Of a stretch of 64,000 nucleotides of DNA, positions 35,666 through 43,374 are shown piece after piece. Numbering within the stretch: position 1 is the stretch's first letter; every line of letters begins with the position of its first letter. The notes below the pieces were generated by a model that saw only the letters and a list, made by a program, of their open reading frames with translations, was not told the origin of the DNA and searched no databases. The DNA is taken from contig CAWIGG010000004.1 in assembly GCA_963835575.1 (NCBI GenBank), forward strand, positions 672,001 through 736,000. Direction: 5' to 3'. Origin of the DNA: an uncultured Spirochaetota bacterium (lineage in GTDB: Bacteria > Spirochaetota > Brevinematia > Brevinematales > JAOACQ01). Position numbers and translations under genes: made by a program.

Positions 35666-35753
35666 ATTAATATTTTATTTGCTGTTGTTGCAGTGTAGCT
35701 GTTGATTACAGAAATGAATATATTGAATATTAAAATAAGTGGAGATGATTATT

Positions 35754-38381
35754 ATGAAGTCTTCTGAGATACGGAAAGCCTTTCTTGATTTTTTTAAAAG
35801 CAAAGGCCATACGATAGTCAAAAGCGCGCCGCTTGTGCCGGACAATGACCCGACGCTGCTATTTACAAATGCCGGGATGAACCAGTTCAAGGATATATTC
35901 CTCGGCACCGGCAAAAGGGATTATGTCCGCGCCGCTGATACTCAAAAGTGCATGCGCGTTTCAGGCAAGCATAATGACCTGGAAGACGTCGGCAAGGATA
36001 CCTATCATCATACCTTTTTCGAGATGCTGGGAAACTGGTCTTTCGGCGATTATTATAAAAAAGAAGCCATCTCCTGGGCATGGGAACTCCTGACCAAGGT
36101 CTGGAAGCTTCCCAGGGACAAGCTTTTCGCGACGGTGCATCATACCGATGATGAAGCCTTCGGTATATGGAGCGATGTTACAGACATAGCAAAAGACCAC
36201 ATCCTTAAATTCGGGGATAAAGACAATTTCTGGGAAATGGGCGCGACAGGACCATGCGGCCCATGTTCTGAGATACATATCGACAGGGGTGAAGCGGCCT
36301 GCGATAAAAAGCATATCAAGGGGCATAAGTGCTCTGTGAATGCCGGCTGCGCGCGGTATATCGAACTCTGGAACCTGGTTTTTATCCAGTATAACCGCAA
36401 TGAAGATACCACTCTTGAAGGGCTGCCCAATAAGCATGTGGATACCGGAATGGGTTATGAAAGGATCGTTTCGGTAGTCCAGGAAAAGTTGTCCAATTAT
36501 GAAACCGATCTGTTTATGCCTCTGATCAAAAAAGTGGAGGAAATGAGCGGCCGGAAATATGAAGAAAAAACAGGAATGCCCATGCGCGTCATCGCGGACC
36601 ACATCCGCGCATTGACATTTTCAATGGCTGATGGGGTTATGCCCTCCAATGAGGGACGCGGCTATGTGGTCCGTAAAATCCTCCGCAGGGCAATACGCTA
36701 CGGCAAGAAGCTCAATTTTACGGAACCGTTTTTAAACCAGCTTGTCGATACGGTCGTGTCCGTAATGGGGGACGCCTTTCCCGAACTTAAGGACCGGGCC
36801 AAGATGGTCAAATCGCTGATTTATTCTGAGGAAGAATCTTTTTTAAAAACGGTAAACAGGGGACTGGATAAATTGAACGAGATGGTGGAAGCGGCCAAAA
36901 AAAGTAAAACCGCAAGCATCAGCGGGGATGAGCTTTTTATACTTTACGACTCGCTCGGCCTGCCGCTGGATTTTATCCAGCATGTGGCGGAAGACGAGGC
37001 CCTGGCGCTGGATATGAAAGGCTTTGAGGCATTGATGGAAAAGCAGAAGGAAAGGGCGCGGGCAAGCTGGAAGGGCGAGGCTTTTGATTTCAAGATTATC
37101 GCCGGCGTTGCCAAGCCCACTGAATACACAGGCGAGGAAAATTATGAGGATAAAGGCACAATACAGCTGATCGTCAAAGGAAACACGCTTGTCGAGACTG
37201 CGTCGGAGAATGATGATATCGTTTTGATTTCCGATAAAACTCCCTTCTATCCCGAAAAGGGCGGCCAGGTGGGCGATGCCGGCGTGGCGGAAAAGGGCGA
37301 GGGGCGGATTGTGATACGGAACACAAAGGTTTTTGAAAATACAATCCTTCATTACGGCCAGGTATTGAACGGCGCTTTCAAATCCGGCGATAAAATCCTG
37401 CTCCGTGTGGATAAAGAAAAAAAAGAAGCGACTGCCCGGAACCATACCGCGACGCATATCATCCACAAGGCTTTAAGGAATGTTATAGGCGAGCATGCGG
37501 CGCAGGCCGGTTCACTGGTCGGCCCGGAAAGGCTCCGTTTTGACTTTACGCATTCCAAGGCATTGACAAAAGAAGAAATAGAAAAAATTGAGAATGAAGC
37601 GAACAGGATCGTCGTGCAGAATCTTCCCGTTGTTTTAAAAAAGATGACAAAAGACGAGGCCGTTAAAAGCGGCGCCGTTGCGATTTTTGAGGAAAAATAC
37701 GGCGATATTGTACGGGTTGTCGAAGTGAGCGGCTATTCGAAGGAACTCTGCGGCGGAACGCATGTCAATAGGAGCGGCGATATCGGGCTGATCAAGATCG
37801 CGGCCGAGAACTCCATTTCGGCCGGGACGAGAAGGCTCGAGGCCGTTACTGGATTGAATTCACTGGAGATGTTCAGAAACTATTATTATAAGGTCAAGGA
37901 AGCCGCCTCTTTTTTAAACACGGATGAGTCCAAGCTGATGGAAAGGCTGGAACAGACAAACGAATCTCTGAAGCAGAAAGATAAAAAAATCGATGAGCTG
38001 AAAGCGAAGCTGGCAAAATCCGGCCTGGATGAGCTGATAAAAAAGGCCGAAAAAATCGGCGGCGCTTCCGTCATCATCGCGAAAACGGATATGGACGCCA
38101 ACGCCATGCTTGCCGCGGGCGATGAATTCAAGGCGAAAGACATCGGCGTGATGTTCCTGATTTCTTCTGCCGCGAAAGACAAAGTAGCGATCACGGCCTG
38201 TGTTTCAAAATCCTATATAGGCAAAATAAAAGCGGGCGACATAGCGCGTGAAACGGCCAAAATAGTCGGCGGCGGCGGCGGCGGAAGGCCGGACCTGGCG
38301 CAGGCCGGCGGCAAGGATGCTTCTAAAATAGATGAGGCATTAAAGACGGCAAAAGAGATGATTGAAAAGGCGTTGAAATAA
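35754..38381 (+). CDS. alaS: Alanine--tRNA ligase
   Basis: TLLFTNAGMNQFK, HHTFFEMLGNWSFGDY, DTGMG.ER, NHTATH, ELCGGTH and GGGGGRPDLAQAGG. Confidence 0.98.
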   Translation: MKSSEIRKAFLDFFKSKGHTIVKSAPLVPDNDPTLLFTNAGMNQFKDIFLGTGKRDYVRAADTQKCMRVSGKHNDLEDVGKDTYHHTFFEMLGNWSFGDYYKKEAISWAWELLTKVWKLPRDKLFATVHHTDDEAFGIWSDVTDIAKDHILKFGDKDNFWEMGATGPCGPCSEIHIDRGEAACDKKHIKGHKCSVNAGCARYIELWNLVFIQYNRNEDTTLEGLPNKHVDTGMGYERIVSVVQEKLSNYETDLFMPLIKKVEEMSGRKYEEKTGMPMRVIADHIRALTFSMADGVMPSNEGRGYVVRKILRRAIRYGKKLNFTEPFLNQLVDTVVSVMGDAFPELKDRAKMVKSLIYSEEESFLKTVNRGLDKLNEMVEAAKKSKTASISGDELFILYDSLGLPLDFIQHVAEDEALALDMKGFEALMEKQKERARASWKGEAFDFKIIAGVAKPTEYTGEENYEDKGTIQLIVKGNTLVETASENDDIVLISDKTPFYPEKGGQVGDAGVAEKGEGRIVIRNTKVFENTILHYGQVLNGAFKSGDKILLRVDKEKKEATARNHTATHIIHKALRNVIGEHAAQAGSLVGPERLRFDFTHSKALTKEEIEKIENEANRIVVQNLPVVLKKMTKDEAVKSGAVAIFEEKYGDIVRVVEVSGYSKELCGGTHVNRSGDIGLIKIAAENSISAGTRRLEAVTGLNSLEMFRNYYYKVKEAASFLNTDESKLMERLEQTNESLKQKDKKIDELKAKLAKSGLDELIKKAEKIGGASVIIAKTDMDANAMLAAGDEFKAKDIGVMFLISSAAKDKVAITACVSKSYIGKIKAGDIARETAKIVGGGGGGRPDLAQAGGKDASKIDEALKTAKEMIEKALK

Positions 38382-38382
38382 A

Positions 38383-38864
38383 ACAGGAAGACGGGAAGGC
38401 ACGAAGAACGGGAAAACGACCGGGGATTAACCACGGAAAACACGGAAATGCATGGAAAGGAACCACAGATTTCACAGATTACACAGATTGATTGCCGGCT
38501 ACGCCTGTATAACAAAGAATATGGTAAAAACACCCTTTATAATTTTATTAAAACTTATATTTTGACCCCAATTGAGCAGGATTGGCAGGATTGATCGGGA
38601 TTTTTAGGATTTAGTTTTATAAAAGCCGCTTTTTGATTTTGCTCGTTGCATGACTTAGACGGAGAGGGTTGGCGGGGAAGGGTTTGGGGTGGTTATTTAA
38701 TTTTCAATTCTTTGTTATTAGCAACTTACCTTATCAAAATAGCTTTCCTGTAATGACTAAACACAAAGGGCACGAAGATCACTAAGAACCACCAAGGGTT
38801 GCCCGCGAATTCACGCGAATAAACGCGAATGGGAAAATTAACAAGAAGATGGGAAGGCGGGAAG
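38383..38864 (+). repeat. Stack of seven short-period (8-10 bp) tandem-repeat arms
   Basis: Arms at 38383-38414, 38430-38457 (CACGGAA), 38462-38489 (CACAGATT), 38574-38611 (CAGGATT), 38761-38796 (CACNAAG), 38801-38830 (CGCGAAT) and 38841-38864. Confidence 0.85.
38497..38690 (+). repeat. Left copy of a ~200-bp unit, inverted relative to 42533-42817
   Basis: Anchors GGCTACGCCT (38497), GACCCCAATTG (38564) and TAGGATTTAGT (38605-38615) recur reverse-complemented, in the same order and spacing, at 42808-42817, 42738-42748 and 42695-42705. Confidence 0.8.
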
Positions 38865-38930
38865 AGTAATAAAATGGACTGATGTTGGGAGAATACCATC
38901 TTTGTTCAGATCAATATCTGCATTATTAAC

Positions 38931-39641
38931 TTATAATTTCATACTCCATTTATAATTAGATAGATTTTCGTTGTCATTTGGTTTTCTAAATACAAATAAA
39001 TGTTCATGCATTATTAAATAAAAACCATAATGTATAGCTTTATTTTCCCATCTTTTTGAATGAACACAATTATGCTGTGCTTTTATTATTTCTTCTTTTA
39101 GAATGAACCCAGATTTTAGAAATCTATCGAGTACATAATATGATATTGGAATATAATGCTGTGATTTACGAGTATCTCCAATTAAAACAGAACAATATTT
39201 ATTTGGCTTCAATACTCTAAACAATTCTTTGGCCACCACTTCTATTTCATCACAAAATTTCTTTAAATTTGAAATTGATGATAAATCATATTTATTTTTT
39301 CCATCAGAATACTTTACTATATTTAAATATGGTGGGTGAACAATTATTAAGTCTATAGAATTATCTTTACATTCAATAATATTACGTGCATCTCCAAGAA
39401 TAACTTTTTGATGTGTTTTTGTTTCAAAATTAAAGTTTAATGCTTCATTTGAAATATCAACAGCTTTTTTATTAATATCAATTCCAATTGCATTTCTGTG
39501 AAGTAATTTTGCCTCAATTAAAGTGGTTCCAGAACCAACCATTGGGTCGAGAATTAATTCATTTTCTTTTGAATATTTTAAAATTAAGTTTCTGGCAATT
39601 TGAGGTGCAAAATTACCCCTGTATTTTGGATTATGATTCAA
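38931..39641 (-). CDS. Amino (N4-C/N6-A) DNA methyltransferase, probably 5'-truncated
   Basis: YRGNFAPQI, LDPMVGSGTT (SAM binding) and DLIIVHPPY (catalytic). Only a TTG start with no RBS, and an in-frame TAA three codons upstream. Confidence 0.8.
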   Translation of the reverse strand: MNHNPKYRGNFAPQIARNLILKYSKENELILDPMVGSGTTLIEAKLLHRNAIGIDINKKAVDISNEALNFNFETKTHQKVILGDARNIIECKDNSIDLIIVHPPYLNIVKYSDGKNKYDLSSISNLKKFCDEIEVVAKELFRVLKPNKYCSVLIGDTRKSQHYIPISYYVLDRFLKSGFILKEEIIKAQHNCVHSKRWENKAIHYGFYLIMHEHLFVFRKPNDNENLSNYKWSMKL

Positions 39642-39670
39642 AAATATTTACAATGACTATTTTAAAAGAA

Positions 39671-39892
39671 TTATTTTATATATTCATTAAATAAGATTTC
39701 ATCTGTATAAAATAGCCCAATTAATATCAATACATCTTTTAATATGTTTTCATCTAAACCAATATTTATTAAATATTCTCTGTTAATTGTGCATTGAGAA
39801 GAACCTGCATTTATTGCTATAGAATATGCTTTAAATTTATCAATTCCCATTTTTTTCAATTTTTTAATTAATAAACATCTTTCATCTTTCAA
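39671..39892 (-). CDS. Hypothetical protein
   Basis: 73 aa, translationally coupled (ATGA-type overlap) to the upstream gene. Confidence 0.6.
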   Translation of the reverse strand: MKDERCLLIKKLKKMGIDKFKAYSIAINAGSSQCTINREYLINIGLDENILKDVLILIGLFYTDEILFNEYIK

Positions 39893-40233
39893 AATAATTT
39901 CCTTTTGTTAAATTCTTCAATGGCATTTTTTAAAGAACCACAAGATAATTTTGCAAGTTCTTCTTTTGACATATTAACTAAATTTTCATGAGATTTTTCA
40001 ATCAAAAACTTATAAAAATAATCATCAGTATTTATTGTTTGAAAAGATTTATCTTCATTAGAAATATCAAAACTAGTAGTATTATAATTTTCATAACTCA
40101 AAACAACATCTTCATTCTTATACAATGCTTTTGCTTGTTGAATAGCTTCTTCTGCAGTATTAGTTTCTATATCTAATATTTTTATTAGTTTTTCTTCTAT
40201 TTCTATTTTATATTTTTGCATAAAATTCCCCAT
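39889..40233 (-). CDS. DpnD/PcfM-like protein
   Basis: KYKIEIEEKLIKILDIET.TAEEAI..AKALYKNEDVVL resembles the DpnD/PcfM pattern. Confidence 0.7.
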   Translation of the reverse strand: MGNFMQKYKIEIEEKLIKILDIETNTAEEAIQQAKALYKNEDVVLSYENYNTTSFDISNEDKSFQTINTDDYFYKFLIEKSHENLVNMSKEELAKLSCGSLKNAIEEFNKRKLF

Positions 40234-40263
40234 TTATTATTTTAGAATAAAAACAATGTTTTT

Positions 40264-41001
40264 TTATAATACAACTTCAACGGTCTCTAATTCAAGTAAT
40301 CTTTCATATTGTTTTATCAATGATTCATATTCTAAAAAATTCACACGAGGTTTAATTTCTTTAAAAACGGAATTAGACAACTTTGTTTCGTATTCATTTC
40401 TTCTTCTTTTATCAGCAACAATCAAAAAACGAACAAAGAAATCTTGTAATTCTGAAAATTTTATAAGAGAATTCTGAATATCAGTGGAATGTTCAATTTC
40501 AAAAAAGGAATTTGGCATCTCTCTTTTATTAAACCAAATTACATCAATAGTCGAACTTTTATCAGTAATTCTTTTATATGAAAAAGAAGGAATATCATTT
40601 AAAGTTCTTAATTCTCCAATAGGTGTTTCAATAAACAATTTGTTTTTATCCTGATTTGGTGCAAATGTATTATATCCTTTCATTTTACCCATTGTTAAGA
40701 TAATACCTTGATAATAAGAATGTGTGAATTCCTGTACTTTTTCAGAATCTTGTTTTCCTTCATTTTCCTCATAAATACCTTTACTTTCAAGATTCTTACG
40801 AAATTTAACCAATCCATATAATCCCGGTTTTATTTTGTAAATTTCTTTTCTTGTTTGAACAATTCGTCTTATACTTGCAAAAGGTGTTTTTGTCCCCCAA
40901 TTGCAATCACTAATTTTCATTGTTTCAATATTTATTTGATTGAGTGTAGCGATGCCATTTAATTTCTCAAGTGCTTCAATAACCGCTTCATGTTGCTTCA
41001 T
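40264..41001 (-). CDS. Winged-HTH plus PD-(D/E)XK-like nuclease (putative restriction endonuclease)
   Basis: N-terminal GIATL..I...W.TKTPFASIRRIVQ (wHTH-like); C-terminal IDVIW...FFEIEHSTD nuclease-like motif. Confidence 0.65.
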   Translation of the reverse strand: MKQHEAVIEALEKLNGIATLNQINIETMKISDCNWGTKTPFASIRRIVQTRKEIYKIKPGLYGLVKFRKNLESKGIYEENEGKQDSEKVQEFTHSYYQGIILTMGKMKGYNTFAPNQDKNKLFIETPIGELRTLNDIPSFSYKRITDKSSTIDVIWFNKREMPNSFFEIEHSTDIQNSLIKFSELQDFFVRFLIVADKRRRNEYETKLSNSVFKEIKPRVNFLEYESLIKQYERLLELETVEVVL

Positions 41002-41092
41002 AATTATACCCTGTAAATTCATTTAACATTTGTGTCTTTCCACCAACCCATTTAAGAAATGGTTTTTCGATTATATTTTCTTTACTTAACAT
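40988..41092 (-). pseudogene. N-terminal remnant of a Dam-family DNA adenine methyltransferase
   Basis: RBS AGGAG, then MLSKENIIEKPFLKWVGGKTQMLNEFTGYNYEAT*. KPFLKW.GGK is the Dam N-terminal motif. Below the ORF-track cutoff. Confidence 0.75.
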
Positions 41093-41197
41093 TTATTACT
41101 CCTGTGGACAATAATGATCTTTTACTATACTATTATTATAACAATAATATTTGTTTTTACCAAAAATATTTACTTTTCCTTTTAGTCAATGAATGAA

Positions 41198-42481
41198 GGG
41201 CGGTTTTAAAAACCGTCTAATTTATCAACACTTCCCTGATAATAGAAAATATTTTCAAAATATTTCTGCCAACAGGTTAAAAACTGTTTCTATTACCAAA
41301 ATTCAGCCAAACACGGGCAATATTATCCATATCTTCTGTATTTTAAGCCGCACAAGACGCAATTCGACCTTTTACCACAACATACCGTGCTAAATTATAA
41401 ACCAGATTCATCAGCCCGATTTGGCTCTCTGCCCTTTCTTTTCCTATCGATCGTATTGTACTGCCGTTCATACTATTTTCAACAAAACCAAAAACATGCT
41501 CAACACGAACACGGATGCGGCTCTTTCTTCTATTTTTTTCTTTCTGCTTCTCCGTCAATGGCTTATTTCTGTATCCTTTTTCGTGAATCCGGTTTTTCAT
41601 CTCAAATTTTTCTAATATTCCTGCTACCGTTGGGCCAACATATGCGCTGTCCGCGTAAAACGGCTTCCCTTTGTCTTTCTCATTCAATAGAGGTTCAACT
41701 ACCTGTGAATCGTGAACGCTCGCATCTGTCGTGACATAAGAACGAATAAGTTTTGACTTCACATCAACCTTTGTATGGTTTTTGTATCCGTAATGCCTCT
41801 CTTTATTCTTGGTCATCCAGCGCGCATCCGTGTCTTTATGGGAAAGCTTATGCGTATTATCTTTCCAATCTTCCGGAACCTCGCCTTCTTTTATTTTCTT
41901 GTTTTCTTCGCGGCTGTTCCTCTGCCGGGGAACATCCACAAAACTTGCGTCTACCATAACGCCCGCTTTCCCTATCACACCTTTATTCTCAAGATTCTCA
42001 TCGAATATTTTAAAAAGTTTCTCTATTGCTTTCGCTTTCGTCAGTTTTTCCTTGAATTCCCAGATTTTACTGTAGTCCGGAACTTTGTCCGAAAGTGTTA
42101 TCCCAAGATATCGCTGAACGGATAACCTGTCATTGATCTGAAATTCCGCTTGCTCATCGGAAAGATTGTAATACCTCTGGAATATCAGTATCTTGAACAT
42201 GAAAACATAGTCATAATGTGGCGCTCCACCCGGCGCCTTCTGCTCTTTCAGCGCCAAAATCTCTGTTAACAGCGGCCGGAACATCTCAAAGTCTACAACT
42301 CTGTTAAGCTTATCCAGCGGTGTTTTTACGCCGCTTAGCTTTTCCATCCGCTCCTGATATTCAAACAAGTTACGGTCTTTCCGCTTAATTTTTGTCATAG
42401 CCTTACCTCTGTTTTCTTTGACTATGATTATATGTTTTTATATACTATTTGTATATGATACGTGGGTTTTTCAAACCGCCC
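41198..42481 (-). mobile_element. IS5-family insertion sequence, 1284 bp
   Basis: IRs GGGCGGTTTTAAAAACC / GGTTTTTCAAACCGCCC (16/17). 4-bp target duplication TGAA at 41194-41197 and 42482-42485. Confidence 0.93.
41343..42398 (-). CDS. IS5-family transposase
   Basis: QRYYNLSDEQAEFQINDRLS, VDASFV, DTDARW, YGYKNH, ADSAY and RVRVEHVFG. Confidence 0.94.
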   Translation of the reverse strand: MTKIKRKDRNLFEYQERMEKLSGVKTPLDKLNRVVDFEMFRPLLTEILALKEQKAPGGAPHYDYVFMFKILIFQRYYNLSDEQAEFQINDRLSVQRYLGITLSDKVPDYSKIWEFKEKLTKAKAIEKLFKIFDENLENKGVIGKAGVMVDASFVDVPRQRNSREENKKIKEGEVPEDWKDNTHKLSHKDTDARWMTKNKERHYGYKNHTKVDVKSKLIRSYVTTDASVHDSQVVEPLLNEKDKGKPFYADSAYVGPTVAGILEKFEMKNRIHEKGYRNKPLTEKQKEKNRRKSRIRVRVEHVFGFVENSMNGSTIRSIGKERAESQIGLMNLVYNLARYVVVKGRIASCAA

Positions 42482-42532
42482 TGAAAAGAATATAAGTATA
42501 AGAATTTTGGTTTTTTTACATTTTGATTTAAA

Positions 42533-42817
42533 AATCCTGCTGAATTGGGGTTAAACAACCAGCTTTATTAAAACAAAAAGGAATTCTAAATCAAAATCCC
42601 CTTTCTGCCGGGCGTAGCCCCTTACCCCCCTCCCTCCGAATCCATCTTGCCTAATCAAAGCACCGGATACCAGCAATAAAGTATCTTTAAGAACACTAAA
42701 TCCTACAAATCCGCATAAATCCGTGCAAATCTGTGTGCAATTGGGGTCTATAAATAAGCTTTAATGAAATAAACAAGGGGCCTTAAACTCAAAACCCTTA
42801 TATTACAAGGCGTAGCC
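42533..42817 (-). repeat. Two tandem right-hand copies (one partial, one full) of the ~200-bp unit
   Basis: AATTGGGGT...GGCGTAGCC occurs twice, ending at 42619 and 42817. AATCCTGCTGAATTGGGGT matches the reverse complement of the left unit at 18/19. Confidence 0.78.
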
Positions 42818-42828
42818 ACCCTGTTGAT

Positions 42829-43374
42829 TTACCTTCTATTTCGTCCTATCATAATAACATTTTCGATAATTGTCAGGCCCAGATAAAAAACGCAAAAATA
42901 AGATATTATTATAGAAGCAACCGGATAATAAGAGATCAACAATATCCGGATCAAACAGATGAGTGCGATTGAAATCATGCAAATGAGCCCGGCGGCTTTT
43001 CCGAATTTTGTAAAAACGATCCCTTTTTTCAGGAAGCAGTTCAGCGTGTAAATTGAAAAAGCCATAAAGATAATTATAATTAAAATAAGCGGGACTGTTT
43101 TTTCCAGATAAAAAATTAAAAAAATAGAAAAGACGGCGATAAAATCGGCCGCCAGGTCCAATAAAGCGCCGCTGAAACTTTCAATCTTCCAGATTCTCGC
43201 CAGCATTCCGTCCAGGATATCGGAAATCAATATCGATAAAGCGATAAAAAAAAGTGTCAGATACGCATTATTGAATTCACTGATAATAAAGAACGGCACC
43301 AGCAGAATTCTCAGTCCGGTGAGGCTGTTAACTGTTAATCTATGAACATATTTACTTTCTTTCTTTGCCTTCAT
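42829..43374 (-). CDS. CDP-alcohol phosphatidyltransferase family protein
   Basis: NSLTGLRI and SDILDGMLAR...GALLDLAAD motif. Confidence 0.88.
   Translation of the reverse strand: MKAKKESKYVHRLTVNSLTGLRILLVPFFIISEFNNAYLTLFFIALSILISDILDGMLARIWKIESFSGALLDLAADFIAVFSIFLIFYLEKTVPLILIIIIFMAFSIYTLNCFLKKGIVFTKFGKAAGLICMISIALICLIRILLISYYPVASIIISYFCVFYLGLTIIENVIMIGRNRR

Follow-up and report, generated by a model that had tools for sequence, protein, structure and literature searches.

A pair of inverted units of about 200 bp encloses a block of AT-rich restriction genes between alaS (35739..38381, + strand) and a CDP-alcohol phosphatidyltransferase gene (42829..43374, - strand) in a 64,000-nucleotide (nt) stretch of DNA, here called the window, from an uncultured Spirochaetota bacterium of the order Brevinematales (assembly GCA_963835575.1, contig CAWIGG010000004.1, positions 672,001 to 736,000). 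Are these units the two ends of a mobile element, as a preliminary description proposed when it inferred a non-autonomous cassette-capture element that carries defense genes and is mobilized in trans, or did they come to lie there in another way? With moderate confidence, we favor the reading that they belong, as the long inner members, to a nested series of arms made of repeated short words (word arms) and edging a lineage-specific insertion at alaS, that this stack is likely derived from cassettes of the GxxExxY nuclease gene (PF13366), and that it is likely a slot for foreign DNA. This reading is built on the geometry and polarity of the arms, on empty sites and on GxxExxY associations, all of them observed. 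Positions without a prefix are those of the window; sites elsewhere carry a genome code, G000 being the genome with the studied locus, whose assembly is 94% complete.

Inverted units and empty sites at alaS

The exact anchors GGCTACGCCT (38497), GACCCCAATTG (38564) and TAGGATTTAGT (38605) recur in reverse complement at 42808-42817, 42738-42748 and 42695-42705, as first described. The near-identical spacing claimed for them is right for the first two (67 and 69 bp); the 51 and 53 bp given for the third run to its far end, its start-to-start distance being 41 and 43 bp. Local alignment of the left unit with the inverted outer right unit scores 83, against 20.5 ± 2.5 and a maximum of 32 for 1,000 dinucleotide shuffles, and the similarity is significant beyond the anchors, filling the sequence between them over ~130 bp. 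The partial second right copy ends at 42619, as reported, with an alignment score of 43 against a shuffle maximum of 36.

The left long arm (38495..38614, + strand) consists of GGCTACGCC, ~57 nt of AT-rich sequence, GACCCCAATT, four GGATT words with a 9-10-nt period, which are the repeat arm that the unit was said to contain, and TTAGT. A conserved spacer of ~80 nt (38615..38695, +) completes a monomer of ~200 bp, for which the reported unit size is correct, and no further unit follows it. On the right, an outer long arm (42696..42818, -) is separated by a monomer spacer (42621..42695, -) from an inner long arm (42531..42620, -), which is truncated at the junction with the cargo, one CAGGATT word into its array.

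The long arms belong to a larger stack. Seven arms follow one another from the alaS stop codon: an outermost GGAAG-type arm (38382..38407, +) that starts at the stop codon itself and resembles the left arm of a GxxExxY cassette at G000:C5:453298; CACGGAA-type and CACAGAT-type arms (38431..38489, +; sequence and arm-pattern matches); the left long arm; and three further inward arms of the CACTAAG/CACGAAG, CGCGAAT and GGAAG types (38762..38864, +; arm-pattern matches). The right side has the two long arms and a 9-nt ATCAACAGG (42820..42828, -) adjoining the host stop codon, which is suggestive of a stub, possibly of a GGAAG arm mirroring the leftmost one. The units do edge the insertion, but the insertion reaches outward past the left anchor by 115 bp, to the alaS stop (38382). 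Inside the left stack lies a 25-nt motif (38883..38907, +), TGT(C/T)(A/G)GG(T/A)GAATA...TTGTTCA, with three sites genome-wide, each directly inside a long-arm stack (the other two at G000:C2:1083102 and C4:973757).

The whole 4,447-bp interval between the two host genes is absent from all four congeners compared, in which alaS and the CDP-alcohol phosphatidyltransferase gene are adjacent, with 8-57 nt between the alignment ends; this is the cargo-free junction that the preliminary description proposed to look for in relatives. Among six more arm-bracketed loci checked in the same four congeners, two have clean empty sites in all four, and one of these has as its outermost arms two matching CGCGAAT arms, each in contact with a host stop codon. 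Contigs from three read runs matched mainly the insertion sequence (IS) of the IS5 family described below and short pieces of the locus, and were uninformative on inversion, circles and empty alleles.

Long arms and word arms across the genome

An iterated profile search of the genome returned 114 long-arm matches, 43 of them full length. The full arm follows the plan of the left one, with three or four GGATT-type words and often TTAGT at its end. In 12 of the 31 arms ending in GGATTTAG a new GGCTACGCC begins 80-90 nt downstream, so that the monomer is ~200 bp and can be arranged head to tail, as on the right side of the locus. Word arms, inward arrays of at least three words with a 9-10-nt period, are far more numerous: five kinds give 427 matches (some arms match two kinds), against four in a shuffled genome. 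Of 320 outermost arms, 214 face the 3' end of a gene, 70 of these within 30 nt; for 5' ends the corresponding figure is 10 of 106. Where two or more arms form a stack (91 stacks), the long arm takes the innermost place 31 times and the outermost place once; the left long arm of the studied locus, with three arms inside it, is an exception to this rule.

The long arms are also polar. Counting all arms, the open reading frame (ORF) on the inner side has a G+C content (GC) below 33% in 20 of 43 cases and the outer ORF in none of 43. After de-duplication, with tandem arms merged and IS genes and ORFs shorter than 300 nt skipped, the figures are 21 of 38 inside and one of 38 outside, against a background of 8.8% of 3,533 ORFs (p = 8e-6). 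This polarity argues that the long unit is not a random solo repeat. The preliminary description had suggested looking for the unit genome-wide and listing what other copies enclose: the unit belongs to a dispersed family, the pair is not private to this locus, and the copies point into AT-rich DNA.

Outside this genome, the long-arm pattern had one match in 11 genomes of the family, equal to the control count, a second long-arm pattern had none in 400 genomes of the phylum, and the viral contigs and plasmids searched had none; 34 pattern matches in metagenomes did not score against the arm profile. Exact patterns overlook diverged copies, and the absence is to be read as not found in those searched; among them, the long-arm family was found only in this genome.

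Other identities were considered for the long arm. A structured RNA was rejected because the arms give no folding signal, hairpins included: over the initial 82 nt of 43 arms, the mean folding z is -0.25 and 0.0 on the two strands. Rfam gave four weak matches, none of them near its gathering score. By eye, the family consensus translated in six frames gave nothing suggestive of a coding remnant, no search being made with the translations, and promoter and terminator signals within the arms were at shuffle level.

Three observations concern the same repeats. A separate ~23-nt repeat of the TTCGGCAAGCTCA(C/G)CACAAGT type lies within the word arrays of several arms (G000:C2:258765, C4:802341, C5:158825, C3:118046 and C2:1320217). 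The pattern matches at loci L113, L119 and L128 are due to chance: they are AATTGGGGTCAG...CTGACCCCAATT palindromes after gene stops that contain the long arm's GACCCCAATT block, and are possibly TIRtron-type repeats. A CGCGAAT arm overlaps the stop codon of an Xer-type recombinase gene (G000:C2:1244954-1245844).

GxxExxY nuclease genes and a proposed slot for foreign DNA

The words of the left stack recur beside GxxExxY genes. This genome has nine PF13366 matches, and their flanks, inspected by eye, carry GAAG, CGCGAAT, CACAGA and GGAAG words, as in the left stack. Two genomes from a different family of this order contain an intact, cargo-free GxxExxY cassette with word arms that begins 8-10 nt after the alaS stop (L180, G013:C9:49513-49863; L181, G017:C41:22369-22719); these are two of the 13 genomes in which the alaS 3' flank was read, and both were drawn from the GxxExxY search. 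Triples of the CAGGATT word occur in nine of 242 genomes, from two distant classes. Among 31 CAGGATT loci examined, a GxxExxY gene is present in six loci at three places, and at G521:C24 an intact gene is cleanly bracketed by inward CAGGATT arms.

The following course of events would fit these observations. Inward-pointing arms of several word types are observed at host-gene 3' ends, and the GGATT-word arm bears, only in this genome of those searched, an 80-nt outer extension and an 85-nt spacer that make up the ~200-bp monomer found in the innermost position. The arms would come pairwise, each inside the previous one, spread in trans by a word-specific GxxExxY nuclease, and later deletions would erode them and leave unmatched stacks; pairwise nested arrival followed by deletion would explain why facing arms are not cognate. 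Repeated cuts just inside the word arrays would open the slot, which host repair would fill with available DNA, here presumably a block of restriction genes with its own promoter. Some sister slots with a promoter and an attI-like site by the arm, a pattern seen at the sites described below, have taken up integron cassettes, presumably through a recombinase, such that the center may take up foreign DNA by more than one route. The IS5-family element arrived last.

Several results weigh against reading the units as arms of a GxxExxY-derived slot. The activity at its center, a nuclease that spreads arms and opens the slot, is putative, and we give it a little better than even credence. None of the nine GxxExxY genes of this genome is flanked by GGATT-type arms. 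The clean bracket at G521:C24 is one of 31 CAGGATT loci, the gene lying beside the arms at the two other places, and no GxxExxY gene was found at 187 viral loci. The 80-nt outer extension was not found in any other genome searched, and no source for it was identified. Approximately 45% of long arms point toward something other than an AT-rich gene, and inward arms on both sides were found for 10% of 171 very AT-rich ORFs, from which it follows that most foreign genes arrived by other routes. In the synteny test, one extra locus was empty in three of four congeners, with an insertion wider than its arms, and the remaining three of the six (L151, L153 and L154) gave no clean empty site. Finally, the congeners are distant (~70% DNA identity at alaS), and the order and timing of events are unreadable from them.

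Alternative explanations of the units

The rival that survives best, although we consider it rather unlikely, treats the arms as selfish REP-like repeats that pile up at the edges of already inserted, AT-rich, non-essential DNA and have no role in capture. Arms that enclose nothing or only other arms, IS copies inserting in the same intervals, the many AT-rich genes without arms, and the tested insertion that is wider than its arms speak for it. It leaves unexplained the strict inward orientation (21 versus 1 for AT-rich ORFs, and 11 versus 0 for the attC-like sites described below), the fixed innermost rank of the long arm, the arms adjoining host stop codons on both sides, and the fact that two relatives have a GxxExxY cassette free of cargo at the alaS stop.

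The preliminary description's own model, in which the long units are terminal inverted repeats of one non-autonomous element moved whole in trans by an enzyme such as a TIRtron-type Y1 transposase, is improbable in our judgment. What stands of it is that the units edge defense-type DNA that is absent from congeners and point into such DNA genome-wide; cognate ends that move as a unit are what did not hold up. If the two units were a matched set of ends, they should resemble each other more than they resemble other arms. They are 71% identical, and the median pairwise identity of full arms is 65% (903 pairs); their mutual ranks are five and seven of 42, the left unit being the seventh closest to the right unit. 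The right unit has a better BLAST partner elsewhere in the genome (102 bits) than the left unit (70.7), and the identities of five facing arm pairs fall at unremarkable percentiles among all pairs (83, 45, 14, 71 and 21). Ranks, percentiles and the better partner elsewhere together argue that the left and right units are not cognate. In favor of the earlier view, the exact 11-mer GACCCCAATTG occurs genome-wide only in these two units, an inverted pair does bound an insertion missing from congeners, and the reverse complement of GACCCCAATT is similar to the GGGGWSAS motif given for TIRtron ends in the available part of PMC3733652.

Other properties expected of a mobile unit did not appear. Among 50 neighboring arm pairs, tandem pairs exceed facing ones (24 versus 19), and the insertion extends 115 bp past the left unit. 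No convincing target-site duplication was found: the direct repeats that come closest, 5-6 nt long and near the ends, are unequally offset and within chance for the interval searched, the congeners being too distant to reveal the target, and the one candidate, TTGATT, is unequally offset and also part of other family copies. Apart from the later IS5-family element, the interval has no mobilizing gene of its own, as the preliminary description had noted. The cargo is single-copy in the genome, and a long arm was found at none of 57 loci of the cargo nuclease elsewhere, which speaks against an element that moves with its cargo. Two PF01797 (Y1_Tnp) matches are present in the genome, which the model could use as a source of transposase, but neither lies inside these arms within 350 nt. 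A Y1_Tnp-like segment (G000:C5:410121-410348) is part of a 1,208-aa open frame with restriction-modification-like flanks, bounded by inverted repeats. PF04986 (Y2_Tnp), the transposase expected of an IS91-type rolling-circle element, had no match in the genome; the control search for it also matched nowhere.

A third possibility makes the long arm a component of a satellite integron platform (a promoter and an attI-like site) and the cargo a decayed cassette supplied by an integron-like recombinase of the genome; at this locus we regard it as very improbable, although integrons do bear on sister sites. The best profiles for the genome's integron-like recombinases are NF040815 and TIGR02249, with scores under the TIGR cut-off. 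Integron-like recombinases at G000:C2:46684-47745, C6:427147-428202, C7:4725-5780 and C1:10011-10976 run in the same orientation as cassette arrays, in which most attC-like sites measure 155-185 nt. A profile of these sites matches the genome 65 times, 42 times in arrays and 23 times solo (some of them weak). Solo matches lie within 5 kb inside a GGATT arm in 11 of 23 cases (random expectation 11%) and behind one in none of 23; for seven of the solo matches the arm is a long one (random 4%), and a solo site lies no more than 5 kb inward of eight of the 43 long arms. Modules of a promoter and an attI-like GAGTT site (G000:C2:1250505, C4:370748, C4:971006 and C5:158987), the only four matches genome-wide to a pattern composed after three of them had been seen, are all located inward of a GGATT arm, at 15-117 nt from it, and have the same crossover as the array heads; cassettes ending in attC-like sites come after three of them. 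At C2:480397 and C2:1631280 there are related promoters that lack the GAGTT site. The attC-like sites and promoter modules inside arms show that some sister slots are fed by cassettes.

The studied locus itself is not an integron cassette. In 38301-42900 the attC-like profile built from this genome matched nothing, even at E values up to 10 and with filtering disabled; TCTCCCAAC after the methyltransferase stop does resemble an attC left end, but no complementary cassette start was found (score 21, shuffle mean 24), this locus lacks the promoter-GAGTT module, and the cargo comes with promoter-like and ribosome sites of its own and leaves no room for attC between its genes.

That the arms are host regulator or chromosome-protein sites selected beside foreign genes is hardly credible: the 9-10-nt period suits phased protein binding, and paired repeats in Geobacter are so interpreted in the available part of PMC2700814, but the arms are absent from congeners and come and go with the insertion, and the same words flank a nuclease gene in distant genomes.

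Cargo genes

The cargo was described as restriction-modification-like and visibly AT-rich, and its GC is 0.25, against 0.49 for alaS. The individual gene assignments of the preliminary description (N6/N4 methyltransferase, DpnD, winged helix-turn-helix (wHTH) nuclease, dam stub and IS5) were borne out, with the correction that the methyltransferase lacks its 5' end. All genes are on the - strand. Read from the right, they are ordered as a promoter-like site (TTGGTA-17-TATAAT, 41135..41163, read by eye) that belongs to the cargo itself; a dam 5' stub of 34 codons (40988..41092) overlapping the start of the nuclease gene; an intact 245-aa nuclease gene (40264..41001) encoding a HARE-type wHTH and an NmeDI-C (PF27126) domain; a DpnD-like gene (39889..40233; PF14207, E 2e-7); a 73-aa orphan ORF (39671..39892); and an N6/N4 DNA methyltransferase remnant (38931..39641; PF01555, PADLOC MTase_II). 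The remnant has no ATG start, lacks the N-terminal TTVWSFP...WAT segment and is 61% identical to residues 45-276 of a full-length relative. The orphan ORF matched only itself among the 40-128-aa proteins searched and has no family match; it is perhaps not a gene. With both its methyltransferase genes fragmentary, the cargo is not a working restriction-modification pair. An IS5-family element (41198..42481, -), a later arrival, as reported, carries its TGAA target duplication, and its transposase has 20 near-identical copies in the genome. At least 16 multicopy ORF families were seen in the genome, mostly transposases, the largest with 33, 24, 20 and 18 copies.

The nuclease has 6,239 homologs, an Atlas score of 0.98 and a weak REase_II match. 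Its structure model (pTM, the predicted template modeling score, 0.74) gave no fold match at E ≤ 0.001, its sequence had no valuable match in the PDB, and the weak fold matches include BsaWI, BsoBI, BstEII and FokI. Fragments of dam 5' ends (28-126 codons) lie directly upstream of the nuclease gene in 14 of the 57 related loci, from several phyla (L030, L038, L041, L042, L045, L046, L048, L050, L051, L062, L074, L076, L077 and L086), which indicates that the stub did not arise at capture. One nuclease locus has a long dam frame on the opposite strand, and DpnD follows the nuclease in four Bacteroides loci that are kin to each other. No second dam was found in this genome. The recurring stubs hint at a nuclease that would be incompatible with Dam methylation. 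By analogy, the cargo resembles a DpnI/DpnII swap, which suggests that the nuclease may be a methylation-dependent enzyme; the HARE-HTH domain, in the available part of PMC11037411, more likely senses cytosine modifications. Among the words of the genome, ACGT (0.55) and CTAG (0.32) are strongly under-represented and GATC is not (0.94).

Discussion

How do the arms compare with known repeat systems? The comparisons refer to parts of the sources cited. The Ssn/SRM-NTS system (PMC11893778) is similar in having a small single-domain nuclease gene with its own flanking repeats and many gene-free copies of them. Ssn is a GIY-YIG protein whose repeats are 20-50-nt hairpins, whereas the nuclease here is the PD-(D/E)XK-type GxxExxY (PF13366), the arms are direct word arrays, the 5' part of the arm has no significant fold, and the arms nest in order around cargo. 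REP/RAYT elements, REPtrons and TIRtrons (PMC3733652) are likewise dispersed intergenic repeats downstream of genes, forming dimers and clusters, and the arm consensus GGGGTC, which reads outward from the cargo, is like GGGGWSAS, the last two positions being variable; in contrast, the arms described here have no hairpin, and facing arms enclose kilobases of varied foreign DNA. The paired triple repeats of Geobacter (PMC2700814) consist of three tandem words, paired across the two strands with varying spacing; a congener lacks them, and IS elements are nearby. They have another word and are putative IHF/HU sites, and the portion of that report available mentions neither a link to a nuclease or capture nor a long extension.

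Our sister slots, with their isolated, integrase-free cassettes and a nearby promoter, resemble SALIN/CALIN cassettes with attG (bioRxiv 10.1101/2022.09.11.507474), with the differences that the cargo studied here has no attC and that attG is not described there, in the available part, as lying in a repeat family. For the cargo alone, the likeness is to the pneumococcal DpnI (dpnC-dpnD) and DpnII (dpnM-dpnA-dpnB) cassettes (PMC4471560): a nuclease gene and then dpnD lie between fragments of methyltransferase genes (dam-type and N6/N4-type). Here, however, the nuclease is of the wHTH-NmeDI-C type rather than DpnC, and the methyltransferases are broken, not swapped out. The comparison also covered parts of PMC3607928 and 10.1101/2021.01.26.428298. 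In the literature searched, outside which most subscription journals lie, no description of GxxExxY arms or of such slots was found, and searches on GxxExxY with repeats, REPIN/RAYT with cargo or defense, and REP with defense islands or HUH found nothing relevant.

As a broader proposal, which we put forward tentatively and hold to be somewhat doubtful, GxxExxY and its word arms may constitute an undescribed capture system, in which the nuclease would build nested stacks at gene 3' ends and reopen their center, the long arm of this lineage would act as a specialized docking module, passing the slot to an integron-like recombinase in trans where a promoter and attI-like site are added and otherwise accepting raw fragments like the restriction block, and the result would be dozens of refillable defense slots.

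One lesson of this locus is that an island enclosed by inverted repeats is not necessarily a single element with those repeats as its ends. The cargo nuclease, which in 14 of 57 loci follows dam genes truncated independently of each other, is a candidate methylation-dependent restriction enzyme that would be easy to assay. GxxExxY (PF13366) is a common family of small nucleases, which the available passage of the literature mentions only as a neighboring gene; the arms offer it a testable target, and the locus links that target to the uptake of defense genes at defined chromosomal slots. If the capture system is real, the chromosome of this bacterium would hold such slots by the dozen, scattered and open to refilling.

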